From contig WRAI01000008.1 of assembly GCA_009780275.1 (NCBI GenBank), forward strand, positions 337 to 64,336: a stretch of 64,000 nt of DNA. Direction: 5' to 3'. This document shows, one piece after another, positions 4,083 to 58,651 of the stretch (the first letter of the stretch is position 1; each line of letters begins with the position of its first letter). The notes beneath the pieces are model-generated. The model was not told where the DNA came from. It saw only the letters and a list, made by a program, of their open reading frames with translations, and made no database searches. The DNA is from Oscillospiraceae bacterium. GTDB lineage: Bacteria; Bacillota; Clostridia; Oscillospirales; UBA929. A program made the translations under genes and the position numbers.

Positions 4083-4133
4083 GATTCCCTCAACACGTTG
4101 CGACACAACGATTACGGCGATTACAGAACGCTC

Positions 4134-4154: not shown

Positions 4155-4177
4155 AAAAATCGATTGCTTGTACAACG

Positions 4178-4206
4178 AACGACACCTCAAATCGGGTGTC
4201 GTTTTT
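4178..4206 (+). terminator. Rho-independent terminator just inside attL
   Basis: AACGACACC / GGTGTCGTT 9-bp stem, 8-nt loop, T-run. Confidence 0.6.
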
Positions 4207-4489
4207 GTTTGTGTACATATGTTCGCATTGTGTGATGTCGATTGATTTCCCAATTGTCATTCGTGCATAAAATCACCCATTATATTATACCATTTTCGAT
4301 TTTAATTGCGTTCGCCATTGCACCCAATTCACACATCATCTACAACCGTCAAAATCAACCGCTAACTGATGAAAACAATGTTTGCAATGTCAACTATGCG
4401 TTCGATTGAAATGCTGTAAAACTGCGAATTTCTGTGTTATGCCGTGAATGCAAAAAATGAACCCATTACGGATTCATTTCATTGCATTA

Positions 4490-4753
4490 TCAAATATGGT
4501 ATTCGGTGTTGTCATGGTCAACATTTGAAATTAAATCATCAATTTTGACACCCAACACAATCGAAATTTTATATAACGTGCGAACTGACATTGTGAATTT
4601 ATCATTGTTGCTTTCAAGTCGTCTGATATAATCATGTGACAAATCAACGAGTTCAGATAATTCTGCCGCAGTCATTTTTATTTGTTTACGATAACGTTTG
4701 ATGTTTTTGCGAATGGTCAAATATATGTCATCATCGAAATCAAATGTACGCAT
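4490..4753 (-). CDS. XRE-family helix-turn-helix regulator (element repressor candidate)
   Basis: 87 aa with an HTH_3-like segment (MTAAELSELVDLSHDYIRRLESN). It is divergent from the cargo gene. Confidence 0.75.
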   Translation of the reverse strand: MRTFDFDDDIYLTIRKNIKRYRKQIKMTAAELSELVDLSHDYIRRLESNNDKFTMSVRTLYKISIVLGVKIDDLISNVDHDNTEYHI

Positions 4754-4905
4754 TGATTATCACCCCACGTTAATTGTACATAAATCAACAAAGGGTGTAT
4801 GTGACTGTGCAGGTCACAAAAATTTGACACACGCCCAAAATCATGTTACCATGTCATTGTCGAAATCGACAAAATATGTAAAAATGACAAGGAGAAACAC
4901 GATTT

Positions 4906-6657
4906 ATGAAAAAGCGGATTTTATCACTGGCACTTGCAATGTTGATGATGTTTTCATTGACAGGTGCGATGTTGACAACGGGGGCGAATGGTGCGATTTC
5001 AAGCATTACATATATTCCAAATCAAATTGCAAATTTCACGATTGAAAATATTGAATTATTTGGCGGACAAATTGATGAAGTCGCACAAGGACAATCGCAT
5101 ACAATTCGTGGAATTGCACCATTTATTCACAATGAAGGACACGAATTTTACGCATGGGGAATTCGTATGATGAACATGGAAACATTTCAATTTGAATGGA
5201 TTGAATTTTTTTATGAGGGTCAAGTCATCACGTTAGGGCAAGACGAATTTGCTGAACGTCATATGATAACAATAATGCCTGTATGGGTACCCGAAAATCA
5301 AAATCCGCCCGAATTAGCAAATGTTTGCACGATTACAGGTCAACTTCCATGTAATTGCGATGTTTTCGTTTGTGACGTTTGTGGTAGAGGTGATTGTGCT
5401 TGCTGTGATGATTGCAATGAATTTCCTTGCGTTTGCGAACCTGTTTTTTGTCCAGATTGCTATTGGAATCCATGTATTTGTGATGTCGAACGCACAGTAT
5501 GGGATTATGACGCAAGAGCAAACGCAAATTCATGGGCGAGAGATTACATAGAAACGGCATGGGATTTTAATATGCTGTCAAGTCGTGTATTGCAAAATAA
5601 CACATGGCAAGCAGGAATTTCACGTTTACACATTGCAGACATTGCTGCACGGTTTATCGAGCATTATACAAATATGACAATCAATGAATTCATTGATTCG
5701 CTTGACGATGATGATTTATACGAAATTCCCGATTTATATGACATTGCAAATTTGTATGAGTTTGATAGTGATGCGTATGCGATGGTTCGATTGGGCATTT
5801 TTCGGGGTTCGCAGTCATATCGTTGGACGGGTTTGCAATTTAGGGCAAATGATTTAATCACACGACAAGAAGCGTCAACATTATTGGGGCGTTTAGTTTC
5901 GTTATTTTGTGGTGCAATTCCGTCGAACATTACAAACGAACAATTGCCGTTTGAGGAAAATTTGCCGTCGTGGGCAAGAAATTATATTCATTTTTTGTAC
6001 AATCAGCAACCGACTCGAATAATGGGAAATACATGCTCACAGGGCGGATATTTATTTCGACCGTTGATGACATTTCCGACACAACAAATGACGATTGCCG
6101 TTGTACGGACATTGAATACATTGTGTGATTTCGGAAATTGTGAATGTGTAATTGACGTTGAACCGCAGACAAAAACAATTTATGTAATTCGTGAAACTTT
6201 TGGCACAACAAATACACAGGCATTTGAAAATTATCAAGCAATGCGGAATGTATTTGACAATGGAAATTTTGCGACATATACGGCGGTTGAGGTTACATGG
6301 CATAGTAGATTTACAGATAACAGCGGAAATTTTGTATTAGAGAATGTTTGGGTTGGTCAAGAAGTTTGGGGTTGGTTAGCAGGAAGTCATGTTTCGGCAG
6401 TTTGGAATGGCAACGAGGGTGCGAGTTTTGATAGGGGTTCAAAAATGGTAGGAGGAATTAGCAATGGGTGGGCAAGAAATAAAGCATTTGGAACAGAGCA
6501 AGCGTTATGGGATTTTATCGAAGGCGATGAAAATTGGGCACATGAAAATCGTTCAACAGGTTGGGGATTTAGAAAATTTTATTTAGTCAACGGTATATGG
6601 ACAACAGGCGATTCAACATGGAGTGGTTTTGATGGGGATTTGATTGTGAGTGCATAA
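4906..6657 (+). CDS. Secreted surface protein: signal peptide, Cys-rich module, three SLH-like repeats, Trp-rich C-terminal domain
   Basis: 583 aa. Signal peptide MKKRILSLALAMLMMFSLTGA. About 50 aa carry ~16 Cys (CNCDVFVCDVCGRGDCACCDDCNEFPCVCEPVFCPDCYWNPCICD). Three SLH-like segments are present (SWARDYIETAW...ISRLHIADIAARF; AMVRLGIFRG...ITRQEASTLLGRL; SWARNYIHFLY...). Confidence 0.65.
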   Translation: MKKRILSLALAMLMMFSLTGAMLTTGANGAISSITYIPNQIANFTIENIELFGGQIDEVAQGQSHTIRGIAPFIHNEGHEFYAWGIRMMNMETFQFEWIEFFYEGQVITLGQDEFAERHMITIMPVWVPENQNPPELANVCTITGQLPCNCDVFVCDVCGRGDCACCDDCNEFPCVCEPVFCPDCYWNPCICDVERTVWDYDARANANSWARDYIETAWDFNMLSSRVLQNNTWQAGISRLHIADIAARFIEHYTNMTINEFIDSLDDDDLYEIPDLYDIANLYEFDSDAYAMVRLGIFRGSQSYRWTGLQFRANDLITRQEASTLLGRLVSLFCGAIPSNITNEQLPFEENLPSWARNYIHFLYNQQPTRIMGNTCSQGGYLFRPLMTFPTQQMTIAVVRTLNTLCDFGNCECVIDVEPQTKTIYVIRETFGTTNTQAFENYQAMRNVFDNGNFATYTAVEVTWHSRFTDNSGNFVLENVWVGQEVWGWLAGSHVSAVWNGNEGASFDRGSKMVGGISNGWARNKAFGTEQALWDFIEGDENWAHENRSTGWGFRKFYLVNGIWTTGDSTWSGFDGDLIVSA

Positions 6658-6770
6658 TCACAACACGCACAATCCACAGTAGAACCGTTTAGTTCATATG
6701 TGAACATGATAACGTGTTGACGATGTGGATAATCGGTTAAACCGCAGAATTAGCGGTCACAATGATAAAT

Positions 6771-6808
6771 AAAAACGCAATGTCGATTTTGTCAACATTG
6801 CGTTTTTT
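6771..6808. terminator. Bidirectional hairpin terminator between convergent element genes
   Basis: AACGCAATGT / ACATTGCGTT 10-bp stem flanked by an A-run and a T-run. Confidence 0.65.
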
Positions 6809-6836
6809 GTGTTCAAAGGAAAATAAAATTTAATAA

Positions 6837-7199
6837 TTATGCAGATTTTTTGATTTCATACGTTTTGTTACAATGATTCATAAATTGATACATTGCATGA
6901 GTAACAATGTTCGTACAATGCACGATTGCAAAAAATATGTCATCATGCAAATCACCAACGTGTTTATTATGTTTTTGTTGATAGATTTCATCAGCGTGTT
7001 TCAATGCGTTTGCAATAATCGAATATGACAATTGATTGTGTTTTTCATTGTATGCAATTAAATCACACGTGCAACGAATGTCATTGCATTTTTCGTCATC
7101 ACGGTTTTTTGATTCGTGATACAATTTCATCATTTCGTTGATGTCGTTTTGCATTTGAGTTTGTGCAGATTTCGAGAGATTTTTGTTTGTATTATTCAT
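6837..7199 (-). CDS. Hypothetical protein (His/Cys-rich, 120 aa)
   Basis: Clean ORF with an upstream RBS region. No recognisable motif. Confidence 0.5.
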   Translation of the reverse strand: MNNTNKNLSKSAQTQMQNDINEMMKLYHESKNRDDEKCNDIRCTCDLIAYNEKHNQLSYSIIANALKHADEIYQQKHNKHVGDLHDDIFFAIVHCTNIVTHAMYQFMNHCNKTYEIKKSA

Positions 7200-7432
7200 T
7201 TGATAATACTCCTTTTTAATGTAAATTTCGTTGATTTCTCAACGATTTATTATGTATATATTATAACATAAAATCAAGCAAAAGTATATGATTTTTGAAA
7301 AGAAAAATAAAGTCGCAAACGCAGACAGCACAAGGTGTTCAGAGGGTCGAGAGGATTATTTTTCAGAAAGTTTTGATATTGTTTTTTGGTTCGCAAAATG
7401 CGGGCAAATTTTATTACAAAGAGGTATTAAAT

Positions 7433-7672
7433 ATGCAGGTGCAATTACAAGGAATTAGAGCATTAGATTTCAAATCAGACAATGGCGAAAATGTCAAAGG
7501 CACACAGTTATTTGTTACATACAATGATGAGAGTGTAAACGGTTTAATGACGGATAAAATTTTCGTCAAACAAGAAGTTCAAATTCCGCAAGGAATCAAA
7601 CAAAACGACATTTTGAATTTGATGTTCAATAACAAGGGAAAAGTCATCGCAATCAGTCAAGCGAAACAATAA
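7433..7672 (+). CDS. Hypothetical small protein (79 aa)
   Basis: ATG at 7433 follows AAAGAGG. The longer track ORF starting at 7295 lacks an RBS. A terminator hairpin follows at 7675-7706. Confidence 0.5.
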   Translation: MQVQLQGIRALDFKSDNGENVKGTQLFVTYNDESVNGLMTDKIFVKQEVQIPQGIKQNDILNLMFNNKGKVIAISQAKQ

Positions 7673-7722
7673 CGAAAAAATGGGCGATTTATTTCGCCCA
7701 TTAAATTTATGAGGAGCATTTT

Positions 7723-8232
7723 ATGAGCAACAAACAAATTAAACAAGTCAAGTTCGGCGCTGTCATTGGTTACATGATTATCATGTTCGCAGTATTTCGC
7801 AGATTTAGCGGTTTTCATATATTCGATGATGTTCGTATCGGAACATTGCCAATTATCGCATTACACGTCATTCTAACGGCGCTCGCTATCGTTGTATTGT
7901 TCGTTATGATTTATGTGTTCGCAACAAATCATTTCGCACGAAAAGCAATACAGGATAAAATCACAAATACGGCGTGTTTGAAAGAGATAACAACGGCAAA
8001 ATTGATTTCGTATAAATTATCAAATACGGATTACGTCACGTTGGCATTTCGTGCGGAGGGTGTTTCCAAAGATGTATGGGAATCGAAACGCAATGCGATT
8101 CAATCGGCAATCAATTATACAATCATTGGAGATATAGAATATTCAAAAAATTGTTGGTCGGTCGTTTATTTCAACGCACGAAAAGGACGGACAAAATCAA
8201 ATCAAGCGAGGTTAGTTGAGAATGATGTTTAA
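7723..8232 (+). CDS. Membrane protein (2-3 TM), probable anchor partner of the FtsK-like ATPase
   Basis: 169 aa with hydrophobic helices (FGAVIGYMIIMFAVF; LPIIALHVILTALAIVVLFVMIYVF). Its 3' end overlaps the next gene. Confidence 0.6.
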   Translation: MSNKQIKQVKFGAVIGYMIIMFAVFRRFSGFHIFDDVRIGTLPIIALHVILTALAIVVLFVMIYVFATNHFARKAIQDKITNTACLKEITTAKLISYKLSNTDYVTLAFRAEGVSKDVWESKRNAIQSAINYTIIGDIEYSKNCWSVVYFNARKGRTKSNQARLVENDV

Positions 8233-8965
8233 TGTTGGATATGATTTGCAAGCATGGAATGATTACAGCGAGAAAAAATACATTACGGCAGATATTTCAT
8301 CAAGCACAAATTCACAAACAGTCATTTGTGGCATGAGCGGAAGTGGTAAGTCATATTTTTTGAATCAGTTATTTGCAAAATTAGTCAAGGCAGAACCCAA
8401 CGGCGAATTTTATTTTGCAGATTTCAAAGGCGATGATTCATTTGCCCATTTAAGGGATTGCAAAAATTATTATTCGTACAAGAACACAATCAAAGCGTTA
8501 GACATTGTGCATGAGAAGTTACAGCAACGAATGAGCGGTATAGATAAATCAAGAAATCAAATAACGTTAATTTTTGATGAGTATGTAGCGAATATTTTAT
8601 CGTTGTTGAATGAATACAAGAAACACGCCCAAGCAGTAATGAATAAAGTATCAGAATTATTGATGATGGGTCGTTCAATGTGTGTTCGATTGATTGTTTC
8701 ATGCCAGCGTCCCGATGCCGCCGTTTTCAATTTTGGTTCAAGATTGAATTATGAAATTTGCATTATTTTAGGTAAGTTTAACAAATCAATTTATGATATG
8801 TTAATGCCGGAACACATCGACGCCGTCAAAATGAAAATTGACAATCATAATTTCGGTTGTGGCGAGGGTTCGTGCGTAATTGGTTCAGATTTGCATTTTA
8901 TCAAAGTTGGCGAAGTTGAAAACATGGAAAATATAAAGAGAATTTGCAAGCAAGCGTTATCATAA
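8222..8965 (+). CDS. FtsK/SpoIIIE (TcpA-like) DNA translocase ATPase domain protein
   Basis: Walker A GMSGSGKS, Walker B LIFDEY, and an FtsK-type LIVSCQRPD motif. The start is ambiguous between 8216 and 8225. Confidence 0.75.
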   Translation: MMFNVGYDLQAWNDYSEKKYITADISSSTNSQTVICGMSGSGKSYFLNQLFAKLVKAEPNGEFYFADFKGDDSFAHLRDCKNYYSYKNTIKALDIVHEKLQQRMSGIDKSRNQITLIFDEYVANILSLLNEYKKHAQAVMNKVSELLMMGRSMCVRLIVSCQRPDAAVFNFGSRLNYEICIILGKFNKSIYDMLMPEHIDAVKMKIDNHNFGCGEGSCVIGSDLHFIKVGEVENMENIKRICKQALS

Positions 8966-8984
8966 TTTTAGAAAACGATATTAT

Positions 8985-9016
8985 AACACGTTCAGATTTT
9001 GAGCGTGTTTTTTTGT
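8985..9016 (+). terminator. Terminator after the FtsK-like gene
   Basis: AACACG...CGTGTT stem followed by T7. Confidence 0.5.
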
Positions 9017-9119
9017 TGCGGTAGAACACAGAATTTTGCGGTTTAACAGATTGGTTCATGTGTTGTCATGGTTGTGTATTGATTGCGAAAATTAGCAAGT
9101 GTGCCGCAGATTTTCAGAT

Positions 9120-9260
9120 GTCACAATGTCACAGAGGTAATAAGAAATTATAGCGTTTTGGGGTTCGTCATGTTGTATAAAATGAGGGTCAAAAGTGGTT
9201 GAAGTTTGTGCAATTTGACGGACGATTTCGGGCGGTTTTTCGAGTTGAAATAGTATAATA
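9120..9260 (+). repeat. Copy A of a bipartite repeated module (GTCACA..GTCACAGAGGTAATAAGAAATTATA ... GGGCGGTTTTTCGAGTTGAAATAGTATAATA)
   Basis: Near-identical blocks recur at 10641-10671 and 10713-10743, so the module brackets rep. Confidence 0.7.
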
Positions 9261-9500
9261 GGAGTATATAAATAATCAAATTAAAGGAGAAAAATTTTTA
9301 TGGGATTTACATAACGATAAAAGATTTTGCGTGAGGGTACGCAAATCGTGCGAAGCGATTGAATTGGATTACTACATTCAATACATAGGTGTTTTGTGAC
9401 ACATTTAGAAAGTCACAGATATAAAGTTCACAAGTTCACATTGAAAACAATATGCACAATTTTATGTGCAAATAAAATAACGTAAAGGATACTATAAAAA

Positions 9501-10631
9501 ATGAGTAACAATAATTTTCCCAATGATTGCATGAACGAAATGCAAAACGAACGTGTACGCAGATTTTTTATCACAATAAATCATTCAGACGTGCGAGAAT
9601 GGACACATGATAAAATTCGTGATGTATGCGAGAAGTTTCCGACAATTAGATATTTTTGTTTTGCAGATGAAATCGGTAACGAAAGTAAGCGTTTACATTC
9701 GCATATATACATAGAATTAGACAACGCAATGCGGTTTAGTACAATGATTAACAATTTCAATGGGGGTCATGTGCAAAAAATACATGAATTTGGTACGGGA
9801 TTTGATTGTCGTAATTACATACGTAAAGATGGTAGGCATTTTGATAAACATGACACAGTTGTTGAAAATACGTTTTATGAATGGGGGCAAGTTCCGCAAG
9901 ACAAATCACAAGGCAAACGCAACGATTGGAGCGATGCACGAACAATGTTAAATGATGGTTTTGATGTTGATAGTATTATTGATACGTTTCCTCATTTAAT
10001 GCGTTATCGTAATATATTAGAAAATGAAATGTTGCATATGAAATCAAGGGGCAGGCAAATGAAAGGTCGTGCGTATGTAACATATATTCAAGGTCGCACG
10101 AATTTGGGTAAAACAACATGGGTATTTGATGAATATGGCGATGATGAAGTATGCAACATTATTGATTACGAAAACAAAAATCAAATATTCGATAGTTATA
10201 TGGGCGAAAGGGTTTTGTTATTAGACGAGTTCGATTCAAGCATTACATATTCGATTTTGAATGGGTACATTGACAGGCGAAAAGTAAAATTGAGTGCGAG
10301 GTATCACAAAAGAACGGTGTGTTATGAAAAAATATACATCGTATCGAATTTGCCGTTAGAAAAACAATATGAAAAATTGAAAAAAGACAATCGTGCATTT
10401 TACGACACGTTCATTCGCAGAATTGATAAAGTTATGGTTTACACAGATTTTTGCAAATTCAACGAATACACGACAAGTGAATATTTTGAGTTGTTAGAAC
10501 ACGACAAATCAATCAATGGTTTTGCGACGAGTGAAAGTAAGAAACAAACGGGATTTTGTAGTATATGTGGCGAATTTGATTGTATGGGCGATAATTGCGA
10601 CGATTTATGGGGCGAGGATTTAGCGAGTTAG
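9501..10631 (+). CDS. rep: Rolling-circle replication initiator with HUH endonuclease + SF3 helicase architecture (CRESS-DNA-virus/pCRESS-like Rep)
   Basis: Motif I RFFITINH, motif II HSHIYIEL, motif III NYIRKDG (YxxK), Walker A GRTNLGKTT, Walker B VLLLDEFD, motif C YIVSN. There is a C-terminal Cys cluster CSICGEFDCMGDNC. Confidence 0.75.
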   Translation: MSNNNFPNDCMNEMQNERVRRFFITINHSDVREWTHDKIRDVCEKFPTIRYFCFADEIGNESKRLHSHIYIELDNAMRFSTMINNFNGGHVQKIHEFGTGFDCRNYIRKDGRHFDKHDTVVENTFYEWGQVPQDKSQGKRNDWSDARTMLNDGFDVDSIIDTFPHLMRYRNILENEMLHMKSRGRQMKGRAYVTYIQGRTNLGKTTWVFDEYGDDEVCNIIDYENKNQIFDSYMGERVLLLDEFDSSITYSILNGYIDRRKVKLSARYHKRTVCYEKIYIVSNLPLEKQYEKLKKDNRAFYDTFIRRIDKVMVYTDFCKFNEYTTSEYFELLEHDKSINGFATSESKKQTGFCSICGEFDCMGDNCDDLWGEDLAS

Positions 10632-10640
10632 GTTTGGTTA

Positions 10641-10743
10641 GTCACAGTCACAGAAGTAATAAGAAATTATACAAGAAACGGATTCGACTTCGGTCGGGTT
10701 CGTTTTTTATTTGGGCGGTTTTTCAAGTCAGAATAGTATAATA
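10641..10743 (+). repeat. Copy B of the bipartite repeated module; contains the rep terminator
   Basis: GTCACAGTCACAGAAGTAATAAGAAATTATA at 10641-10671 and GGGCGGTTTTTCAAGTCAGAATAGTATAATA at 10713-10743. A hairpin plus T-run lies at 10677-10708. Confidence 0.7.
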
Positions 10744-10780
10744 AATGTATAAAATAAACAAAAAAGGAAGTACATTTAAT

Positions 10781-11074
10781 ATGATGGAAAAACGCATGAA
10801 TATTCCGCAAACAACGAGTATTGAAAACGCATTACATATTTATTATCGTCATGCAGAATTAGGCAACAAAGAGATAACAATTTTATTCGGGCAGCGTTCC
10901 CCGAACACGTTGTCGAAATTGAAAAAGATTGCAAAGGACGAAATGCGAGAACGTGAAATGATGTCGTTTGGTTCAAACACGGTCAACACGGTTGTTGCGT
11001 TTGAAGTTTGGGGTATTGACGTTAAGGATTTAGAGCATCGCATGAAAAAGATTAAACAGTTGAAATTAGCGTAA
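10781..11074 (+). CDS. Small putative DNA-binding protein upstream of int (excisionase/regulator candidate)
   Basis: 97 aa from ATG 10781 (RBS AAGGAAG). The call rests on its position immediately 5' of the integrase and an HTH-like stretch (NKEITILFGQRSPNTLSKLKKIA). Function is inferred only. Confidence 0.4.
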   Translation: MMEKRMNIPQTTSIENALHIYYRHAELGNKEITILFGQRSPNTLSKLKKIAKDEMREREMMSFGSNTVNTVVAFEVWGIDVKDLEHRMKKIKQLKLA

Positions 11075-11112
11075 ATAAAAATATGATGATGTTGATTGCT
11101 TGTAAATGGGTG

Positions 11113-11140
11113 TTGACACTACTTTTCAATGTGTTATAAT
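11113..11140 (+). promoter_or_regulatory. Promoter for int (TTGACA-16 nt-TGTTATAAT, extended -10)
   Basis: TTGACA at 11113-11118 and TATAAT at 11135-11140, preceded by TGT. Confidence 0.55.
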
Positions 11141-11177
11141 TCGTTCACAAGCAATCGACAGGAAAGGATAAAAAAAT

Positions 11178-12353
11178 ATGTCGATTAAAAAGATTACAGG
11201 CAAATCAAAAGACGGTTTGCAAAAGTATCATGTTCGTGTAAATTTCATGTGCAACAGAACAGGCAAATATAAGCAGTTCACAAAAATTGCGTATGGGTTA
11301 GAAAATGCAAAAGAATTAGAAATTCAGTTGCAAAAACAAAAAAATGAACATGATATAGATTCAAAAATGACGATTCAGCAGTTATTTGATGAATACATGG
11401 CAAAGAAACGGTTTGAAATTCGTGAATCAACATGGGATACCCATAAGCGACAATATGAAAATCATGTTCAGTCGATTTTAGGCAATATACGAATTAGCAA
11501 GTTGACAACGCAGATTTTGCAGGATTGGAAAACACAAATTGAATCAAAAGGAATGGCGTTGAAAACAAAACAGCATATGTACGGTAATTTACGAGCGTTG
11601 TTAAATTATGCGGTCAAAATGCAGTACATCAATCAGAATTTATTGTTGATTGTCGGCAATTTCAAAGATGCAATGTACACGAAACAGGAAGTTGATTTTT
11701 ACACGTCGGACGAATTTTTGCAGTTTATTGAAGTTGCGAAAGCACAAGCAATAAAACACGAGCGAGAAAATCACGATTGGTCGGAGTATGAGTATTATGT
11801 ATTTTTCAATATTGCGTTTTATTGTGGTTTGCGAAAAAGTGAAATTCATGGGTTGCAATGGAGTGATATTTGTGGTAATATGTTAAGTGTTCGGCGTTCG
11901 ATTCAACAGAAAATCAAAAATGTTGATATTGTGCAACCCCCTAAAACAAAATCGTCATATCGTACAATGCAAATGCCACAAGCATTGATTGACATTTTGA
12001 ACGAACACAAGAAACGCAAACAGCAATTACACAATTTCAGCGATGACAATTTCATTTTAGGCGTTGAGCGTTCATTGCGTAATAGTTCAGTTGCAAATCG
12101 AAATAGTTTATATGCGGAATTGGCACAGTTAAAGCACATACGCATACATGATTTCAGACATTCTCATGCTTCTGTTTTATGCAATGCAAATGTGAATATT
12201 CAGCAAGTTTCAAAACGAATGGGTCATGCACGAGTTGAGGAAACACGGAACACATATTCGCACTTATATCCTCGTGATGTTGAAATTGCCGTTGATGTAT
12301 TTAACAAAATCGACAATGCGAACAAGCGTCCTCGATTGTACGAAATCGCATGA
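11178..12353 (+). CDS. int: Tyrosine site-specific integrase
   Basis: 391 aa with an N-terminal SAM-like domain. The C-terminal catalytic pattern includes GLRKSE, HDFRHSHAS and a terminal Y (NTYSHLY). It lies next to attR. Confidence 0.88.
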   Translation: MSIKKITGKSKDGLQKYHVRVNFMCNRTGKYKQFTKIAYGLENAKELEIQLQKQKNEHDIDSKMTIQQLFDEYMAKKRFEIRESTWDTHKRQYENHVQSILGNIRISKLTTQILQDWKTQIESKGMALKTKQHMYGNLRALLNYAVKMQYINQNLLLIVGNFKDAMYTKQEVDFYTSDEFLQFIEVAKAQAIKHERENHDWSEYEYYVFFNIAFYCGLRKSEIHGLQWSDICGNMLSVRRSIQQKIKNVDIVQPPKTKSSYRTMQMPQALIDILNEHKKRKQQLHNFSDDNFILGVERSLRNSSVANRNSLYAELAQLKHIRIHDFRHSHASVLCNANVNIQQVSKRMGHARVEETRNTYSHLYPRDVEIAVDVFNKIDNANKRPRLYEIA

Positions 12354-12505
12354 CGAAACGTAACACATTTTTAACACAATATTGTGAAATTGTTGCGAAT
12401 ATCAAAATATTGCGAAATAGGCAAAATGCGTGAACACATTGATATGAATAGGTTATAATAGGTTTGGGTGATTGGCGAATATATTAAAATTGTTTGCAAA
12501 TTCGA

Positions 12506-12522
12506 CCTGTCACCTCGACCAT
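12506..12522 (+). repeat. attR core (17 bp)
   Basis: Identical to the tRNA 3' end at 4066-4082. Confidence 0.9.
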
Positions 12523-12565
12523 TAGTCTTAATGAGTCTGTATCCCTAGTTACCTCTGTTGCCAAC

Positions 12566-12610
12566 AAAAGCGTTCTTATCAGCATATTAAACGCTGATAA
12601 GAACGCTTTT
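12566..12610. terminator. Bidirectional terminator (original tRNA-Pro terminator / MFS gene terminator)
   Basis: Perfect 18-bp inverted repeat AAAAGCGTTCTTATCAGC / GCTGATAAGAACGCTTTT with a 9-nt loop. Confidence 0.75.
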
Positions 12611-12669
12611 GTTTTACTATTATTGCAGACAAATTTTAACAGTAGATACCCAAAAACTTGATAACCTAA

Positions 12670-13851
12670 TTATGTTTTGTTGCCTGCCTTTAGTGCGCGC
12701 GCTAAAATTTCATTGCACACAAATACAAGAACAACAAAAGCCAAGCCCAAAGGGAAAAGCGCCTCATAAGAGATAAAATGCATGATTTGGCTGGTCATAA
12801 AGAATAACACTGCTATCCCGGCACCAAAAGCCGCAAGTTCATACCCTACAATTTTAGACACAGTGTGGGGTGCAAATCGATTGGATGTATCACTGACCAA
12901 GGTTGGAAGCATCGGGCCTAGTCCAAGCCCTGCCAAAGCCATGCCCCAAACGTTGCCGACGAAATATAATACTATAACTCCCACTACGGCTACACCCGCG
13001 CCAATACGCACAATCGGAACTTCCTTTAACCACTTTGCGACCCAGCCAAAAAACACTCGACTGACCGTCATTGATATGTAGTAAACGGCTGAAAATATTG
13101 CCACTGTATAAGTCGTTTCTTGCCCGCGCGCAATCAGTGCTGCGCCGGTAAAAAACACGAGGGTATAGTCTGTGCCGCCCAAGAAGAAGAATGTCAATAT
13201 CTCCACAACCTGATGCCACCGTTTTGTTAAATATCGTTTCTTTTCTGTGTTTTCTTCTAACTCGCCCTGAGCTGACTCATTATCATCAATCCAAATCTTT
13301 TTATACATGCTAAGCAAAAGCATAATTGCCACTGCCCCCAAAATACCGGTAATCACAAAATATCCCGCGCGCCAACTTAGCACTGCCATCATCTGACCCA
13401 TAATAATAGGACTTAACGTAGCGCCAACACCCCAAAAGCAGTGCATCCAGTTGTTGTGCCTAGCGGTAAAGTGTTTTGCCATATACGAGTTCATGCTGGA
13501 TGCCATTAATCCAGTGCCAAACCCATAAATCGTTATGGTTGCAAGCACTAATGTAAAATTCGGCGACAAGGCAAGGCCAATAAAGCCTAAACTCATGATG
13601 ATAAGACCATATAAATAAACCGTTTGCAACTTCATAAAACGATTCAGTTTAGATAAGATGATCCCGGCTAATGTGTAGGTAACAGAATATCCCACCAAGA
13701 TATATCCTGTGTGGGCTGTCGTCATTCCCCGGATTTCATCTGCAATGCCAAGCCATGACACAGTAAATGCACCATCGGGAAATCCAACAACAAAATAACT
13801 CACCAAGATAACGCCGAGTAACCATATATTGCTTTTTTTTGCTTCAATCAT
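12670..13851 (-). CDS. MFS transporter
   Basis: 393 aa with about 12 predicted hydrophobic helices. Co-oriented with and overlapping a TetR gene. Confidence 0.75.
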   Translation of the reverse strand: MIEAKKSNIWLLGVILVSYFVVGFPDGAFTVSWLGIADEIRGMTTAHTGYILVGYSVTYTLAGIILSKLNRFMKLQTVYLYGLIIMSLGFIGLALSPNFTLVLATITIYGFGTGLMASSMNSYMAKHFTARHNNWMHCFWGVGATLSPIIMGQMMAVLSWRAGYFVITGILGAVAIMLLLSMYKKIWIDDNESAQGELEENTEKKRYLTKRWHQVVEILTFFFLGGTDYTLVFFTGAALIARGQETTYTVAIFSAVYYISMTVSRVFFGWVAKWLKEVPIVRIGAGVAVVGVIVLYFVGNVWGMALAGLGLGPMLPTLVSDTSNRFAPHTVSKIVGYELAAFGAGIAVLFFMTSQIMHFISYEALFPLGLAFVVLVFVCNEILARALKAGNKT

Positions 13852-14510
13852 GACAATTCCTCACTTTTTATTGGATATAATCCTTCTGCAAACTTCTTAG
13901 ATTTTGCTATAAATGCATCACTCGCAACATCTACACCCAAGAGTCTCATCATATGCTGGACAAACCGTAAGCGTTTATGTAAGTCTTCTGCACTGCACTC
14001 AAGAGTAACAGGGTCACACCATATGCAAAATAAGAGATTGAATAGCTGAGCGCATTCTTCAGGAAATTCTGTTTTTACCGAACCATCTTGATTTCCTTCT
14101 TTTATGATGTCAGTGATAATTGGCGATATCTTTTTCTCCCATGCTCTCAAATCCTCAATAATAAGTCGGGGGCTTCGAGACGTAAGTGCCATTTTTGATA
14201 ACGGCGTTCTCTCAGCATCGTCGTAGAACCTGTTGAACAGACCCACGATTTTTTCTTTAGCTGTCAACATTTTCATGTCAGAGAGCCATTTGTGCATATC
14301 CTGTGCCGTGGAGTCGTTATGTTTGTCTAGTACTGCAGCTAAAATATCCTCTTTCGACTTAAAGTGGTGAAAAATTGTTCCCTTAGACAGCCCTGTCTCG
14401 TTTACAATTTCTTGCGTCGTTGTTTTTTCATAGCCTTTTTCCAAAAAAAGTTTTTCAGAAACAGATAGAATGGTATTGATCGTTTTTTGTGGGTCAATAA
14501 CTCGTGCCAT
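13848..14510 (-). CDS. TetR/AcrR-family transcriptional regulator
   Basis: N-terminal TetR HTH (EKTTTQEIVNETGLSKGTIFHHFKSKEDIL). A 4-nt overlap links it to the MFS gene. Confidence 0.85.
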   Translation of the reverse strand: MARVIDPQKTINTILSVSEKLFLEKGYEKTTTQEIVNETGLSKGTIFHHFKSKEDILAAVLDKHNDSTAQDMHKWLSDMKMLTAKEKIVGLFNRFYDDAERTPLSKMALTSRSPRLIIEDLRAWEKKISPIITDIIKEGNQDGSVKTEFPEECAQLFNLLFCIWCDPVTLECSAEDLHKRLRFVQHMMRLLGVDVASDAFIAKSKKFAEGLYPIKSEELS

Positions 14511-14549
14511 GTGTACAACCTCCTTCTTATATAGTATGATAACACAGCG

Positions 14550-14568
14550 TAGACCGTCGGTCGGTCTA
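14550..14568. promoter_or_regulatory. Palindromic candidate TetR operator TAGACCG-N5-CGGTCTA
   Basis: Perfect 7-bp inverted arms, 40 bp upstream of the TetR start. Confidence 0.45.
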
Positions 14569-14759
14569 TTTTCATGCTATCATTTTCCGCACTCTTTGTC
14601 AAGTATTTTACATACTAACTCGCTTTTGGTAAGCATACATTGACCGACATATCATATGTGCCTTTGTTATAAGCACTGTCAAAAACTTGCTCTTTGCTTT
14701 CTTTTGTGGTATAGTGAGGAGAAAGCCACATCTACAAATATCGAAAGGATTGTATCGAA

Positions 14760-15749
14760 ATGAAAAAAATGTGCAAATTTCTCGCGTTGCTTCTTGTTGT
14801 CACTTTTGCGGCTGCCAGCTTTTCTGCTTGTGAGAACGGAGGCGGTTCTGACGACGGTAATTTCAGCATCGGTATTATTCAATTGTTAGAGCATCCGGCA
14901 CTAGACGCTGCCAGCAACGGCTTTATGGAAGAACTGACGGCGGCGGCAGAGTCCGCGGGATATACCGTAACGTTTGACTTGCAAAACGCGCAAAATGACA
15001 CCGCCACACTAAATACCATCGCGAGCGGCTTTGAGCGGCGCGGGGTAGACTTGGTACTTGCCAATGCCACGCCCAGCGCACAAGCAATGGCCAATGTAAC
15101 CAACGAAATCCCTATCGTTGGTGTATCGATTACTACCTTTGTCGGTGCTGGCTTAGTTGACTCTAACGAAGCACCCGGCGGAAATATTACCGGCGCATCC
15201 GACATGAACCCCGTTCGTGCGCAAATTGAAATGATTTTGGAGTTTTTCCCCGACATCCAAACTATCGGCTTGCTGTATTCATCGGGCGAGGATAACTCTG
15301 TGTATCAAGCGCAATTGGCACGGGATGTTATCGAGGATTTAGGGCTTACCAGCGATTCGGCCACTATCGCCGATGTCAACGACTTGCGCCAAGTCGCTAC
15401 ATCCTTGGCTGGCCGTGTAGATGCCATCTACATACCAACTGACAACAACATCGCCGGCGCAATGGGTGTCATTGAACAAGTCAGCGACAGTTCCAGCACA
15501 CCGTTCTTCGCCGGCGAAGAAAACATGACCATGGGAGGCGGCGTTGCCACACTCAGCGTCAATTACGAGGAGCTGGGGCGGCAAGCCGGCCGTATGGCAG
15601 CGCAAATTCTACTCCAAGGCGCAACCCCGGCAACGATGCCGATTCAAACGGCAGAGCGATACAATTACACTGTCAACGGCTATATGGTCGAGCGTTTGGG
15701 CATTGATGTCCCCACGCGTTTCCAAGAATTTATCCGCATGCCGGAATAA
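14760..15749 (+). CDS. ABC transporter substrate-binding lipoprotein (ABC_sub_bind / BMP-type, the family annotated as putative Trp/Tyr uptake)
   Basis: Lipobox FSAC. The sequence is typical of the PF04392-like family (IGIIQLLEHPALD..., VDAIYIPTDNN). Confidence 0.75.
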   Translation: MKKMCKFLALLLVVTFAAASFSACENGGGSDDGNFSIGIIQLLEHPALDAASNGFMEELTAAAESAGYTVTFDLQNAQNDTATLNTIASGFERRGVDLVLANATPSAQAMANVTNEIPIVGVSITTFVGAGLVDSNEAPGGNITGASDMNPVRAQIEMILEFFPDIQTIGLLYSSGEDNSVYQAQLARDVIEDLGLTSDSATIADVNDLRQVATSLAGRVDAIYIPTDNNIAGAMGVIEQVSDSSSTPFFAGEENMTMGGGVATLSVNYEELGRQAGRMAAQILLQGATPATMPIQTAERYNYTVNGYMVERLGIDVPTRFQEFIRMPE

Positions 15750-15810
15750 TAGAAGTGTTGAAAGGCAGTTTCAACATACCCGAATAATCACTAATTAAAG
15801 GACATATCAT

Positions 15811-16731
15811 ATGTTTTCCATCTTGCAAGTAGCTGTTTCAGAGGGGTTGCTCTGGTCGCTGATGGCGGTCGGCGTTTTTTATACGTTCCGCATTTTAAAT
15901 ATGCCCGATCTGTCCGTCGAAGGCACGTTGATACTGGGCGCGGGATTGGCAGCGCGGCTGATTGCCAACGGCGGTAATCCGTTTGTGGCCACATTACTTG
16001 CCATATGTATTGGCGCGGCAGGCGGCTTTGTCACCGGCATTTTACACACCAAGCTCAAAATACCGTCAATTTTGGCTGGCATTTTGACGATGGTCGGCTC
16101 TTACTCAGTCGCCCTTCGTGTCATGTCACAGCCCAATATTCCGCTGAACCGCTGGCGTACATTCTCTGTCTTCGCGGCATTTGAAAACCTGCTTGGATCA
16201 CTGGGGATAGCCGTTTCTTATGACACCATTGTCATTATCTTCTCTGTTATCGTGGCCATCGCCATTGGTGTGCTCCTCTATTGTTTTGCCGGTACCGAAA
16301 TCGGCTCTGCCATGCGCGCCAGCGGCAACAACTTACAGATGGTCAAAGCGCAAGGCGTCAACACCAATGCCATGATTGTACTGTGTCTGATGATTTCCAA
16401 TGGGCTGGTCGGCTTATCGGGCGCGCTGATTGCGCAATACCAAGGCTTTGCAGTTGTCACCATGGGTGCGGGCACAATTGTCGCCGGTCTTGCCGCAGTG
16501 GTAATTGCCGAAGTGTTATTTAAGTTCCGCAGCTTTTGGGGGCGGTTGATTTCGATTGCTTTGGGTTCAATTATCTATCGCCTCGTTATCGCCCTTGTAT
16601 TGGAATTGGGTATGAATCCCAACGACCTGCGATTGCTTACCGCCATCACTGTTGCCGTCGCCTTGGTGTTGCCGCAAACGCGCGACTGGCTCAAAAGGCT
16701 GTTCGGCAAAGTGCGGGGAGGAGCTTCATAA
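15811..16731 (+). CDS. ABC transporter permease (partner of the BMP-type SBP)
   Basis: 306 aa polytopic membrane protein. Its stop overlaps the ATPase ATG by 1 nt. Confidence 0.8.
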   Translation: MFSILQVAVSEGLLWSLMAVGVFYTFRILNMPDLSVEGTLILGAGLAARLIANGGNPFVATLLAICIGAAGGFVTGILHTKLKIPSILAGILTMVGSYSVALRVMSQPNIPLNRWRTFSVFAAFENLLGSLGIAVSYDTIVIIFSVIVAIAIGVLLYCFAGTEIGSAMRASGNNLQMVKAQGVNTNAMIVLCLMISNGLVGLSGALIAQYQGFAVVTMGAGTIVAGLAAVVIAEVLFKFRSFWGRLISIALGSIIYRLVIALVLELGMNPNDLRLLTAITVAVALVLPQTRDWLKRLFGKVRGGAS

Positions 16732-20265: not shown

Positions 20266-20294
20266 AAAAAAACGCTCATTCGAGCGTTTTTTTT
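20266..20294. terminator. Bidirectional terminator between trpB2-like and the DtxR-family gene
   Basis: AAAAAAACGCTC-ATTC-GAGCGTTTTTTTT. Confidence 0.7.
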
Positions 20295-20665
20295 GTTATC
20301 TCAATATGCCGCTGAATTGCCACAAAACTCTCCTCACTCAGCCCATGCTCCATCTTACAAGCATCTTCATCCGCCGTTTGCTCGTCTACACCCAGTGCTA
20401 TCAACCACTCGGTCAACAGCATATGCCGATCGTACACCCGCCGAGCAATCACATACCCGCTCTCGGTCAACGTAATCTGCCCGTCTTGCATAACAATATA
20501 GTCGCTTGCCCGCAAGTTTTTCATGGCAACACTAATACTCGGCTTAGAAAAACCCATTTCACGCGCAATATCAATCGATCGCACCGAGCCATTTCGTTTC
20601 TGCAAAACTAAAATCGCCTCCAAATAATTTTCAACCGATTCCGGCGGCTTTTTCACGACATGCAC
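20276..20665 (-). CDS. DtxR/MntR-family metal-dependent transcriptional regulator
   Basis: ENYLEAILVLQKRNGSVRSIDIAREMGFSKPSISVAMKNL winged-helix segment plus a dimerisation/metal-binding region. Confidence 0.82.
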   Translation of the reverse strand: MHVVKKPPESVENYLEAILVLQKRNGSVRSIDIAREMGFSKPSISVAMKNLRASDYIVMQDGQITLTESGYVIARRVYDRHMLLTEWLIALGVDEQTADEDACKMEHGLSEESFVAIQRHIEITKKTLE

Positions 20666-20713: not shown

Positions 20714-20748
20714 AGAAAAAAGACAGGGCTTATGCCCTGTCTTTTTTA
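20714..20748. terminator. Hairpin terminator downstream of surface-protein paralog 1
   Basis: AGACAGGGC-TTAT-GCCCTGTCT flanked by A6 and T6. Confidence 0.7.
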
Positions 20749-20755: not shown

Positions 20756-21601
20756 TTACTTCTCATCCTTTTTAATCAGCTTTGGCACAACCAGCGCACC
20801 TGCGCCTGCCAAGCCTACCAAGCCAACGACAACAATCATTGCCACGCCGGGGTCAAAGGTCTTGGGGTTTCCTGTGCCCGGAGCAGGTGTGCCTGTGCCC
20901 GCACCAGCGGGAGGTGTTGGCGAAGCTGCCGGCGAAGGTGAAGCCGTAGTCGGCGGAGGCGTTCCGTTTCCATTTCCGCCATTTCCATTTTCACCCGCAT
21001 GGACGCGGAACTCGTTGATGGTAACTACTGTGTCAGCAATGACAGTGAAAGCAACAATTCTAAATGCGCCACCTTCGACAGCACGCATCTGAGTAACCAC
21101 AGCTGCATCTGGCATATTATCAAGGCCCATATCAAGAAGGTAATCTATGCTGTGGCTGTCATCGTGAGCACCGACACCCATGGGATCCAAATCGCCATGA
21201 GCACGGAAAAAGTGGAGGTTGCCCGACCAAGTATTTTCGCCTGTTTGAAGCTGAACAATCAAGCCCAACATAGCACGTGTTTCAGCACCAGAACCTTGCG
21301 CAACATCAATGTCAAAGCTAACATACGTGTTGCCTAATTCAGTGTGAGGGATTTCAATTGGAGTAGCGAGATTAACACGCGACCACGGCGCCCAGTTTCC
21401 AGTATAGACAAGCGGGTTGTTGCCGCCACCGGTGACAGTTACACCTGCAGGCAATGCTGTTTCATCAGCTGCTGTCCACGAAGCTGTCGGTAACGTAAGG
21501 ATATCAGCGGGCAGTGAAGCACTCGCCGAAGCCCCCAAAGTTGCGCCCACAAGCAGCGCGGCAATCAAAAACAATGCGATAAATTTAGTCTTTTTCATCA
21601 T
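20756..21601 (-). CDS. Surface protein paralog 1: signal peptide, variable domain, Pro/Thr linker, C-terminal NPKTFD + TM + KKDEK tail
   Basis: N-terminus MMKKTKFIALFLIAALLVGATLGASA. C-terminus GTGNPKTFDPGVAMIVVVGLVGLAGAGALVVPKLIKKDEK. The start may instead be the second ATG at 21598. Confidence 0.75.
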   Translation of the reverse strand: MMKKTKFIALFLIAALLVGATLGASASASLPADILTLPTASWTAADETALPAGVTVTGGGNNPLVYTGNWAPWSRVNLATPIEIPHTELGNTYVSFDIDVAQGSGAETRAMLGLIVQLQTGENTWSGNLHFFRAHGDLDPMGVGAHDDSHSIDYLLDMGLDNMPDAAVVTQMRAVEGGAFRIVAFTVIADTVVTINEFRVHAGENGNGGNGNGTPPPTTASPSPAASPTPPAGAGTGTPAPGTGNPKTFDPGVAMIVVVGLVGLAGAGALVVPKLIKKDEK

Positions 21602-21739
21602 GTCCTCCTAAATAATATGTTGTTGTCCATTTCACCACACAAAATAGCGGCTGTTTTTAGACATCATTACACACATGATACCATAGTATACCGCAAATTG
21701 CAACAGTTAATCGAGGAAATTTTCAGAAAATTTTTCACA

Positions 21740-21772
21740 AAAAAAAGACAGGGCGCAAGCCCTGCCTTTTTA
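21740..21772. terminator. Hairpin terminator downstream of paralog 2
   Basis: AGACAGGGC-GCAA-GCCCTGCCT flanked by A and T runs. Related to the hairpin at 20714-20748. Confidence 0.65.
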
Positions 21773-21788
21773 TCGCGATACTAAACGT

Positions 21789-22616
21789 TTACTTCTCTTC
21801 TTTTTTTACCAGTTTCGGCACAACCAGTGCGCCTGCACCTGCCAAACCTGCCAAGCCTGTTACAACAATCATTGCAGCACCACCGTCAAATGTCTTAGGG
21901 TTCCCTTGTCCGGGTGCGGGTGTACCCGTTCCGGCACCGACCGGAGGTGTCGTAGTCGGCGGAGGCGTTCCGTTATCGGCAGGAGGCGTGTCTGTCGGAG
22001 GTGTTGCATCCGCCGTTGCGGCAAAATAGAAATATTCAATGGTGAATTGTCTGCCCGCGTGCGCATTTGTGCCGTCCGGATTGACCCAGAAACGAACTTC
22101 TTCCAGCGTCAATGTGTTACCGGTTATCAAATCGTTGACATTGATGGCTTTTCTGCCGCCGCCAACAAGCGCATCCGAGCCGATGCCCATGCTGACTTCA
22201 TTGCCTGAATCATTTGAACGAAGCTCTGTCGGTTGGTTGAACGCAAAAATTAAATTAGGAACATCGCCGGTAATGTTGAAAATCAAATACGGCGTTTGTG
22301 TCAAATTGATTTCCAACTCATCAAAAAAGACGCGAAACAGCGTACCAACACCTTGCCCGTCGTTCAACGGACGTTCTTGCAGTGTCACACGAATGCCATT
22401 GCCTTGCGCTGTCGGAATCGCGTGCGGGTTGCCATCCGTGTTTCCCGTGGTGGATGTTTGGCTAGTAATGCCGTCTGTTACGCCCTCAATAAGCAGAGCT
22501 GTAAAGTCAGCTTCCGTCAGCAAATTTACATTTGCCGCGTTCGCCGAAGCACCCAGTGTAGCACCGACAAGCATAGCCGCAATCAGAAACAGCGCGATAA
22601 ATTTTGTATTTTTCAT
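21789..22616 (-). CDS. Surface protein paralog 2 with the same signal peptide and NPKTFD + TM + KKEEK C-terminus
   Basis: MKNTKFIALFLIAAMLVGATLGASA ... GQGNPKTFDGGAAMIVVTGLAGLAGAGALVVPKLVKKEEK. The start is set at ATG 22616 (RBS GGGGGGA). Confidence 0.75.
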   Translation of the reverse strand: MKNTKFIALFLIAAMLVGATLGASANAANVNLLTEADFTALLIEGVTDGITSQTSTTGNTDGNPHAIPTAQGNGIRVTLQERPLNDGQGVGTLFRVFFDELEINLTQTPYLIFNITGDVPNLIFAFNQPTELRSNDSGNEVSMGIGSDALVGGGRKAINVNDLITGNTLTLEEVRFWVNPDGTNAHAGRQFTIEYFYFAATADATPPTDTPPADNGTPPPTTTPPVGAGTGTPAPGQGNPKTFDGGAAMIVVTGLAGLAGAGALVVPKLVKKEEK

Positions 22617-22716
22617 AATATCCCCCCCTAGTTTAAAATAAATTATCATTGTACGTATAATATCACACTATATCTTAAATTGCAACACTTGACTAAAAAA
22701 CTTGTGAAAATTTTTG

Positions 22717-23508
22717 CTAATTCTCGTAGTTGACAGCACTGCCCCGCAATTGCAGCGACAAACGGTCGGCAATCATGGCGATAAACTCCGAGTTGGTCGG
22801 CTTGCCTTTGGTGTTGGATACGGTATAGCCGAAAAAGCCTTGCAAAGTATCCAAGTCTCCCCTGTCCCACGCCACCTCAATGGCATGGCGGATGGCGCGC
22901 TCGACCCGCGACGGTGTTGTACCATATGTTTCCGCAACCGCCGGATAGAGAATCTTTGTAATGTTATTGACCGCTTTTTTGTTCTTAATGCAATAGACAA
23001 TCGCTTCGCGCACATACTGATAGCCCTTGATATGCGCCGGTACGCCAATTTCGTGGATGATATCGGTGACACGTGCCTCAACATCGTTGTCCGAGCGCAC
23101 AAGTGCCATGCTATAACTGTTGCCGCGTCCGCGCCGCGCCGCTTGACGGATACGTTCCATCAGCAGCGTCATATTCACCGGCTTATGCAATATGTAATAG
23201 GCGTTGAGTGCTTTGAGTTCCATCACGATGTTGTCGGGCAGGAATGCCGACACCACAATGAATGCCACACCATTTTGCCCTTTTGTTTCACGCACGCGCC
23301 GTACAATTTCAGTGCCGTCACGACTGGGTAGCAACGTGTCCACGATGGCAACATCAACCGTTTCGATTTCAAGTGTTTTCAACATTTCTTCGCCGTCGCC
23401 GGTAGACGAAACAACCTCTATGTCTTTCTCTACACCCAGCGTTGTCGCCAAAAAAGCGCGGAACTCTGCATTACTGTCTCCAATACAAACCCTAATTCTG
23501 TTGTGCAT
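22717..23508 (-). CDS. spo0A: Sporulation master regulator Spo0A
   Basis: Receiver domain ([17 protein letters not shown]) plus a diagnostic Spo0A C-terminal domain ([35 protein letters not shown]...[18 protein letters not shown]). The start is at ATG 23508, 7 nt after AAGGGG. Confidence 0.93.
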
Positions 23509-23723
23509 TGTCATACCCCTTACTTTATTTTGTTTTTTTCTTGGCATGTTGAAAAACAATTTATCGACCGACAAGTTTATCATTTTTCGGCACTGCACGC
23601 TTCCAAAATATTAAACTCGGCAACTTACCCGCACTGCAGCGCGGACTGCAAGTCGAGAATGTGTTTTTCAACTTCTCTTTTCTGCGACAGGCCTTGTCAA
23701 CGAGAAAAGAATACCATGTTTTT

Positions 23724-58640: not shown

Positions 58641-58651
58641 GTTAAAATAAT

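Follow-up and report, generated by a model that had tools for sequence, protein, structure and literature searches.

The 64,000-nt stretch of DNA analyzed here (hereafter the window) belongs to a metagenome-assembled genome (MAG) of an uncultured member of the Oscillospiraceae, and carries on its minus strand two adjacent genes, called A and B below, whose products both end in a GNPKTFD motif, a hydrophobic segment and a lysine-rich tail. Unless a contig is named, all coordinates are positions in the window. Gene A extends, with its stop codon, from 20756 to 21598 (minus strand) and codes for 280 amino acids (MCL2546303.1, FWE06_03795); its first ATG is at 21601, and the second one, at 21598, is better spaced from the AGGAGG sequence and yields the 280-aa product listed by NCBI. 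Gene B (21789–22616, minus strand, stop codon included) codes for 275 amino acids (MCL2546304.1, FWE06_03800). Both products are annotated by NCBI as “hypothetical protein” in a MAG labelled Oscillospiraceae bacterium, and no model of Pfam or NCBIfam matched either of them at full length. A and B are tandem paralogues, which BLASTP aligned with an E-value of 3e-24, and almost all of their likeness is located at the two ends. It is very likely that they are lineage-restricted, Sec-exported surface proteins anchored by their C-termini, and we tentatively read the C-terminal tail as a variant sortase signal.

The N-termini of both proteins are predicted signal peptides of 27 amino acids (A, 21518–21598; B, 22536–22616; both on the minus strand) with the consensus MK(K/N)TKFIALFLIAA(L/M)LVGATLGASA. 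A Lys-rich n-region, a hydrophobic core and an ASA-type cleavage site could be read from the sequence of the signal peptide of A, and these features of a Sec signal peptide (MK(K/N)TKF, hydrophobic core, ASA) are kept in the orthologues too. The C-termini of A and B can be written together as G(T/Q)GNPKTFD(P/G)G(V/A)AMIVV(V/T)GL(V/A)GLAGAGALVVPKL(I/V)KK(D/E)EK, which corresponds to a 38-residue module of GNPKTFD, about 22 hydrophobic residues and PKL(I/V)KK(D/E)EK. The motif occupies residues 243–249 of A (20852–20872) and residues 238–244 of B (21885–21905), while the hydrophobic segment is encoded together with the PKLIKKDEK tail of A at 20759–20851 and with the PKLVKKEEK tail of B at 21792–21884 (all on the minus strand). 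The motif is directly preceded by a low-complexity stalk of 35–40 amino acids, which is Gly/Asn-rich and then Pro/Thr/Ser/Ala-rich in A (20873–20989, minus strand), and Pro/Thr-rich in B (21906–22010, minus strand). The near-identical signal peptides and C-termini, which had been named in a preliminary description of this locus, were confirmed. The Pro/Thr linkers, which it had also listed as shared, are present in both genes of the window genome, but they are not a trait of the family, because the stalks of the orthologues are Asn/Gly/Asp-rich or Gly/Ser/Pro-rich.

Conservation of the C-terminal module

The module was found in five proteins from three organisms, the aligned tails of which are ...APGTGNPKTFDPGVAMIVVVGLVGLAGAGALVVPKLIKKDEK, ...APGQGNPKTFDGGAAMIVVTGLAGLAGAGALVVPKLVKKEEK, ...GPQEGNPKTFDSGIWIYLWILGGAALITAGLIVAPKLIKKSR, ...GPAEGNPKTYDATSPYIWFLGGALLLTAGLIFAPKLVEKVK, and ...APTQGNPKTFDATSPYALFLGGALLLTAGVIFAPKLIKKTEK. 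The sequence GNPKT(F/Y)D is invariant in all five, as is a Pro located three residues upstream, and the distance from the start of the motif to the C-terminus is always 37–38 residues. The flanks diverge more, as the 12 residues before the motif are only 8–50% identical between genomes, and the transmembrane (TM) segment together with the tail is 32–55% identical. Past the helix, the sequence PKL(I/V)(K/E)K is kept in the family, and several positions of the TM segment (G, AG) are invariant. The basic tail consists of K-x-x-K-K followed by either D/E-E-K or S-R, which means that it is Lys-based and contains acidic residues. Judged by sequence, this layout of motif, hydrophobic segment of about 22 residues and basic tail is the tripartite architecture of a sorting signal, in agreement with the preliminary description. 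The latter was also correct in noting a Phe in place of the expected Gly or Asn, and across the family this observation extends to Phe/Tyr.

The comparison of the A and B coding sequences showed that the 3′ repeat is 77% identical over 163 nt, and the 5′ repeat (D2), which covers the signal-peptide region, is 80% identical over 86 nt, while the identity in the middles of the genes is 47%, which is the random level. In the ends, the proportion of synonymous differences (pS) was 0.59–0.73, which corresponds to saturation, while the nonsynonymous divergence (dN) was only 0.05–0.10. For the signal peptide the values were dN of 0.05 and pS of 0.67, while for the TM segment and tail dN was 0.13 and pS 0.51, and the dN/dS ratio between A and B was about 0.03–0.15. 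The saturation of synonymous sites together with the low dN shows that the near-identical peptides result from long-standing purifying selection, and selection on the motif itself is also evident from its invariance in the five proteins, in contrast to its diverging flanks. The saturated synonymous sites rule out that the ends owe their near identity to recent gene conversion. An older exchange of the ends is likely from the sequence comparisons, because the ends of A and B are more alike within the genome than between orthologues, because the anchor of P0004, a protein of the A type, is 77% identical to the B-type anchor encoded on contig L003, and because the two stalks have an identical 24-nt patch in common. 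This patch, CGTAGTCGGCGGAGGCGTTCCGTT, is located at 20945–20968 in A and at 21951–21974 in B, is 100% identical, and codes for NGTPPPTT on the minus strand, while the neighboring stalk sequence is unalignable; it may be a small gene-conversion patch.

The module was also compared with Haft's eight criteria for C-terminal sorting domains (10.1101/2023.06.07.544157, section 5). It lies near the C-terminus (criterion 1), has at least three invariant signature residues (criterion 3), includes a TM helix (criterion 4), and occurs in proteins with signal peptides (criterion 6). Additionally, the homologue P0005, which is described below, has an SLH domain instead of a C-terminal TM segment (criterion 8). 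The agreement with criterion 5, which is a mostly-Arg basic cluster, is loose, because A and B have a cluster built on Lys residues. Many and unrelated carriers are the subject of criteria 2 and 7, while in the accessible sequence of the MAG, which was about 126 kb and consisted of the 99.6-kb (99,582 bp) contig from 25.6 kb onward and of 26 kb around P0005, only two carriers were found, which share their signal peptide and stalk.

Ectodomains and genomic setting

The ectodomain of A consists of 176 amino acids (20990–21517) and that of B of 175 amino acids (22011–22535, both on the minus strand), and both are predicted to be all-beta. These centers had initially been described as domains of about 200 amino acids unrelated in sequence; the size proved to be about 175 amino acids, while the lack of sequence similarity was upheld, as homology between the two centers was rejected by profile–profile comparison (hhalign probability of 0.1%). 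The AlphaFold models of both proteins were all-beta and of low confidence, with a predicted local distance difference test score (pLDDT) of 59 and a predicted template modeling score (pTM) of 0.58 for A, and with pLDDT of 52 and pTM of 0.55 for B. The Foldseek search against the PDB gave weak matches (E ≥ 1e-3, TM-score 0.3–0.45), all of which were jelly-roll or beta-sandwich folds, including CBM61, CBM6, CBM86, CBM4, GH12, and Eph-receptor ligand-binding domains; the targets 2xon and 2w91 were common to the lists of A and B. From these models, each center is probably a beta-sandwich (jelly-roll or CBM-like) binding module of about 175 amino acids, and the two centers may be very old paralogues of each other. 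That the ectodomains could bind carbohydrates is only a guess based on the modeled folds.

The ectodomain module of A is also present in P0002 and P0004, and four times in P0005. When A was searched against 5.8 billion protein clusters, only A, B, and P0002 (42% identity) were returned, while a HMMER profile of the A center found two further real matches among 1.84 billion cluster representatives, which were P0004, a 267-aa protein from the third organism, and P0005. Another match of this profile, P0006, was a spurious repeat protein. The center of B has a single known homologue, encoded by the second gene on contig L003 (L003:1234–2091). A word-based search for homologues of the B center returned B itself only, and no match was obtained when B was compared by BLASTP with P0005 and with the 1343-aa repeat protein encoded at the start of the window.

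P0005 (MCL2546831.1) is a protein of 2058 amino acids, which contains four A-like modules, an SLH domain (31.7 bits), and a Big_2 domain, and has no C-terminal TM segment. Its gene is located on contig L056 (k141_750599) at 10001–16177, and the accession series and the shared sample indicate that it evidently comes from the same MAG as A and B. The reuse of the A module in this giant SLH-anchored protein supports a role at the cell surface. The genes neighboring that of P0005 code for a CotH protein, glycosyltransferases, and a polysaccharide pyruvyl transferase domain; polysaccharide pyruvyl transferase is the kind of enzyme linked to the binding of SLH domains to wall polymers.

Synteny is conserved, with the pair consistently placed between spo0A and a repressor gene. 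The gene order in the window is spo0A (22717–23598, minus strand), B, A, and the gene of a metal-dependent repressor of the DtxR/MntR family (20276–20665, minus strand). On contig L003 spo0A (1–240) is followed by a gene of the A type and then by one of the B type, so that the order of A and B is swapped, while on contig L055 an A-type gene is followed by the repressor gene (987–1292). Inspection of the A and B locus by eye recognized no obvious operator sequence for the repressor or for Spo0A.

As judged from the sequence, a separate promoter-like site and a separate terminator hairpin appear to serve each of the two genes. The promoter-like site of A (21675–21703, minus strand) consists of TTGCAA, a 17-nt spacer, and TATCAT, and that of B (22657–22685, minus strand) of TTGCAA, 17 nt, and TATTAT, both with a TG extended −10 element. 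The two regions, compared by eye from the −35 box to about +10, are roughly 70% identical. The hairpin after A (20716–20747) has the sequence GACAGGGC-TTAT-GCCCTGTC and lies between A and T runs, which suggests that it is bidirectional. The hairpin after B (21741–21771) is 87% identical to it over 31 nt; both are GC-rich and flanked by A and T runs. An Rfam scan gave only sub-threshold terminator-like matches. The relatedness of the promoters (TTGCAA-17-TATYAT) and of the terminator hairpins, reported in the preliminary description, therefore holds. An A/T-rich element, TGTGAAAA(A)TTTT, is present at 21717–21740 and at 22695–22715, about 15–35 nt upstream of both −35 boxes. The two copies are in opposite orientations, forming the inverted repeats I3 and I4, which are 84–93% complementary, and the element could be a UP-like element or a binding site for a regulator.

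Several other features were observed further away in the window. A tRNA-Pro(CGG) gene (4005–4081) is followed by a low-GC island (about 35% vs. about 49% elsewhere; the feature spans 4005–12353), which holds a gene of a helix-turn-helix regulator, a weakly FtsK/SpoIIIE-like open reading frame (ORF), and several ORFs without a Pfam match, and which ends with a tyrosine integrase gene (11178–12353, plus strand). The island resembles a mobile element that has inserted at the tRNA gene. At the start of the window (1–3676, minus strand; L007 2–4030) there is an ORF of at least 1343 amino acids, which is cut by the contig end. It is GC-rich (54%), has no Pfam match, and contains Gly/Asn-rich repeats suggestive of a beta-helix; it probably encodes another large surface protein, unrelated to A and B. 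A run of ORFs with few or no Pfam matches is located at 57298–63566 (minus strand), among which the ORF at 61754–62500 has a Listeria-Bacteroides repeat and a weak similarity to papain-like peptidases (C39/C70). Just past the end of the window there are genes for a fn3/Big_2 protein and for a protein with a Cu_amine_oxidN1 domain, and this may be a second surface-protein cluster.

Possible fates of the C-terminal module

The reading that we favor, tentatively and at a probability somewhat short of even, is that the tail could be a variant NPXTG/class-B-type sortase signal, in which the residue that would follow the cleaved bond (P1′) is aromatic, and that the gene of the sortase would lie in another part of the genome. 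Translocation would stop at the hydrophobic segment and the Lys-rich tail, so that the motif would stay on the outer side of the membrane, where NPKT(F/Y)D would be recognized by this sortase. In keeping with what is usual in Clostridia, the enzyme would resemble class B, and it would be of the NPXTG type known from Ruminococcus relatives; it would cut after the Thr and join the protein to peptidoglycan, so that the stalk would span the wall and the ectodomain would be displayed. This reading is supported by the invariance of the motif at a fixed position while its flanks diverge, and by the combination of saturated pS and low dN, which suggests that it is the peptide sequence that is maintained. 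Further support comes from the presence of a signal peptide and of a wall-spanning low-complexity stalk directly before the motif, which is typical of sortase substrates, and from the homologue P0005, the different anchor of which (SLH) agrees with Haft's criterion 8. Additionally, the motif is the same as the proven signal of Bacillus anthracis SrtB except for P1′, and a class B sortase can have a housekeeping role in a member of the Clostridia, as C. difficile shows.

The five 50-residue tails were also scanned against NCBIfam at E ≤ 10. The only curated model that matched in register was NF033846 (Rumino_NPXTG, NPXTG-anchored protein), the profile positions 1–25 of which were aligned from the Asn of NPKT through the hydrophobic segment, and this match likewise argues for a variant sortase signal. 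The name of the model presumably points to Ruminococcus, which we take to belong to the same order as the source organism. The model differs from the A and B family in having Gly at motif position 5, where every family member has Phe or Tyr. Two of the orthologues also matched NF058670 (LPxTATN signal), for which the cutoff is 32 bits, with scores of 15.5 and 14.1, and this candidate was rejected because the alignment, which comes from “ATS” and the helix, was out of register with the motif.

A number of results weigh against the variant sortase signal. The scores of NF033846 were only 9.7 bits for A and 7.3 bits for B, against a cutoff of 23.5, and the other three of the five tails did not match this model. 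All five proteins have Phe or Tyr at P1′, and never Gly, Asn, Ser, or Ala, while we know of no natural sortase substrate with an aromatic P1′ residue. In favor of the reading, an aromatic P1′ is chemically possible, as LPATF and LPATY peptides are cut in vitro, with 24–45% conversion, by class A sortases of S. pneumoniae, L. monocytogenes, and S. pyogenes (PMC10763551). The PKL(I/V)(K/E)K sequence is conserved as such, and not in its charge alone, which is unexpected for a segment that is discarded, and rather fits a retained anchor.

The recurrence of the module was similarly unfavorable to this reading. DNA was scanned with a pattern encoding P-x-x-G-N-P-K-T-(F/Y)-D, and the matches were then checked for an in-frame TM segment and a stop codon. 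Among 185,579 species-representative genomes there were 21 pattern matches, for an estimated chance expectation of about 35, and none of the 21 continued in frame to a hydrophobic segment and a stop codon. In a collection of metagenome contigs, 26 stretches matched, and the full module was present only on the L003 contig, in both of its genes. Neither of the scanned DNA collections includes the contig of the window, and the two carriers in this genome are a lower bound. Within the accessible part of the MAG, which covers at least 20 kb on each side of A and B, no sortase was detected, either by a Pfam match or as an ORF of the TLxTC type; dedicated class B sortases usually adjoin the genes of their substrates. 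The same sequence also lacked any other candidate processing gene, as well as additional ORFs in which xPxTx is followed by a helix and a basic C-terminal tail. The preliminary description had named the recurrence of the motif and a co-occurring enzyme as a check. The accessible part of the genome yielded no further carriers and no sortase, which weakens the case for a dedicated sorting system but, with the search covering this part only, does not refute it.

Three other searches concerned the same module. A 47-column profile of the C-terminal module gave no match at E ≤ 10 among 5.8 billion proteins, the proteins of the window included, which reflects a profile too short for this database and not absence. 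The tail had no tblastn match in plasmids, and a search of the literature returned nothing relevant on NPKTF, nor on NPXTG in Ruminococcus.

The main alternative is that the C-terminus is a plain membrane anchor of an uncleaved type I protein, in which GNPKT(F/Y)D serves as a juxtamembrane element with a structural or partner-binding role. We regard this explanation as doubtful on the whole, and still as a serious one. A retained segment would fit the conservation of the cytoplasmic PKL(I/V)(K/E)K and of several TM positions, as well as the values of dN and pS in the TM segment and tail. It is also consistent with the confinement of the motif to one two-gene family, with the lack of a processing enzyme encoded nearby in the accessible sequence, with the aromatic P1′, which is not known from natural sortase substrates, and with the result that no curated sorting-signal model matched at threshold. 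On the other hand, the most conserved block is located outside the membrane, in register with NPXTG and NPKTG-D, and its distance from the C-terminus is fixed, while known uncleaved tail anchors, such as that of Listeria ActA, have no conserved motif before the helix.

It is unlikely, though conceivable from the conservation pattern, that G-N-P-K-T-(F/Y)-D, the TM helix, and P-K-L-x-K-K together form an undescribed sorting signal with a dedicated enzyme having a pocket for the aromatic P1′ residue. As this enzyme, one could envisage a sortase of new specificity as well as a membrane protease unrelated to sortases; such a signal would be confined to the uncultured Oscillospiraceae lineage, and the PKL tail would be a part of the recognition by the enzyme. 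Less probable still is a signal for a non-sortase enzyme, which could be an exosortase/archaeosortase-family, CPBP/myxosortase-type, or rhomboid-type intramembrane protease, and which would cleave the protein near the motif and then attach or release it. The tripartite design and the agreement with several of Haft's criteria are consistent with such an enzyme, and the invariant non-Gly P1′ together with the conserved tail points to a specificity unlike that of known sortases. On the other side, there is no such gene near the locus, the basic cluster is Lys-rich with acidic residues and not Arg-rich, the many and unrelated carriers of criteria 2 and 7 were not seen in the accessible data, and the motif resembles sortase signals rather than PEP, PGF, GlyGly, or Cys-containing motifs. 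Finally, a modular cassette display, as suggested in the preliminary description, in which many passenger domains would be swapped within a constant promoter, signal peptide, stalk, anchor, and terminator, is very improbable, because the two dissimilar centers between near-identical ends, the different order of A and B in the window and on L003, and the closeness of the P0004 anchor to the L003 B-type anchor, which hints at a past exchange of ends, are outweighed by the presence of only two passenger types, each conserved with orthologues, by the saturated synonymous sites in the ends, which speak against recent shuffling, by the lack of further carriers in the accessible MAG sequence, the 185,579 genomes, or the metagenome collection, and by the prediction of both centers as all-beta and equal in size, which is compatible with an old duplication followed by divergence.

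Should a sortase really cleave NPKT(F/Y)D, no natural signal before it would have had an aromatic residue at P1′, and sortase-mediated ligation could gain an enzyme of orthogonal specificity. Motif-based counts of surface proteins would then also be shown to overlook lineage-specific variants in gut Clostridia. Both ectodomains represent orphan families, and that of A recurs in the giant SLH-anchored protein of this genome, which makes them candidates for new binding modules; the weak fold matches are a hint that they bind carbohydrates. These observations are of small practical reach, as they concern five known proteins from three uncultured organisms and are all sequence-based.

Comparison with known surface-anchoring signals

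The pentapeptides NPKTF and NPKTY fit none of the signals LPXTG, LPXTA, LAXTG, NPQTN, NPKTG, and (S/P)PXTG. As far as the profile comparisons indicate, the module lies outside every curated family, and the closest to it would be the NPXTG-type signal of a related lineage.

The domains of the kind described by Haft, i.e., PEP-CTERM, PGF-CTERM, GlyGly-CTERM, and MYXO-CTERM, are similar to the module of A and B in consisting of a motif, a TM helix, and a basic cluster in proteins with signal peptides. They are different in having many unrelated carriers per genome, Arg-rich tails, and cognate intramembrane enzymes, which were found by co-occurrence. Another kind of C-terminus is represented by Listeria ActA, which is an uncleaved surface protein with a signal peptide, one C-terminal TM helix, and a short basic tail, and which needs no further enzyme to be held in the membrane by its hydrophobic tail. 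In uncleaved anchors of the ActA type, no conserved motif is known to precede the helix at a constant distance, while A and B have one.

Among sortase systems, the class B sortase of C. difficile is a general anchoring enzyme, which recognizes non-LPXTG motifs in non-heme proteins (PMC8225981). The (S/P)PXTG signals of its substrates have Ser or Pro at position 1 and Gly at position 5, and these proteins have no sequence likeness to A and B. The Staphylococcus aureus IsdC protein has the same tripartite layout as A and B, and its NPQTN signal has Asn at P1′, where Phe or Tyr is present here. The class B loci of the Isd type contain an adjacent srtB gene and NEAT domains, while the A and B locus is without an adjacent srtB and, according to Pfam, without a NEAT domain, and its presumed substrates are orphan beta-sandwich proteins, unlike the Isd proteins. 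The iron/manganese-type repressor gene adjoining A and B is a loose parallel to the iron regulation of the Isd loci.

A further parallel among experimentally studied signals is the DNPKTGDE signal of IsdC, a substrate of B. anthracis SrtB. It has Gly at P1′ and Asp at P5, while the A and B family has Phe or Tyr at P1′ and Gly at P5. At P4, P3, P2, P1, and P2′ this signal is identical to NPKT(F/Y)D, and the shared Asp at P2′ is required for the full activity of the B. anthracis enzyme (PMC11987632).

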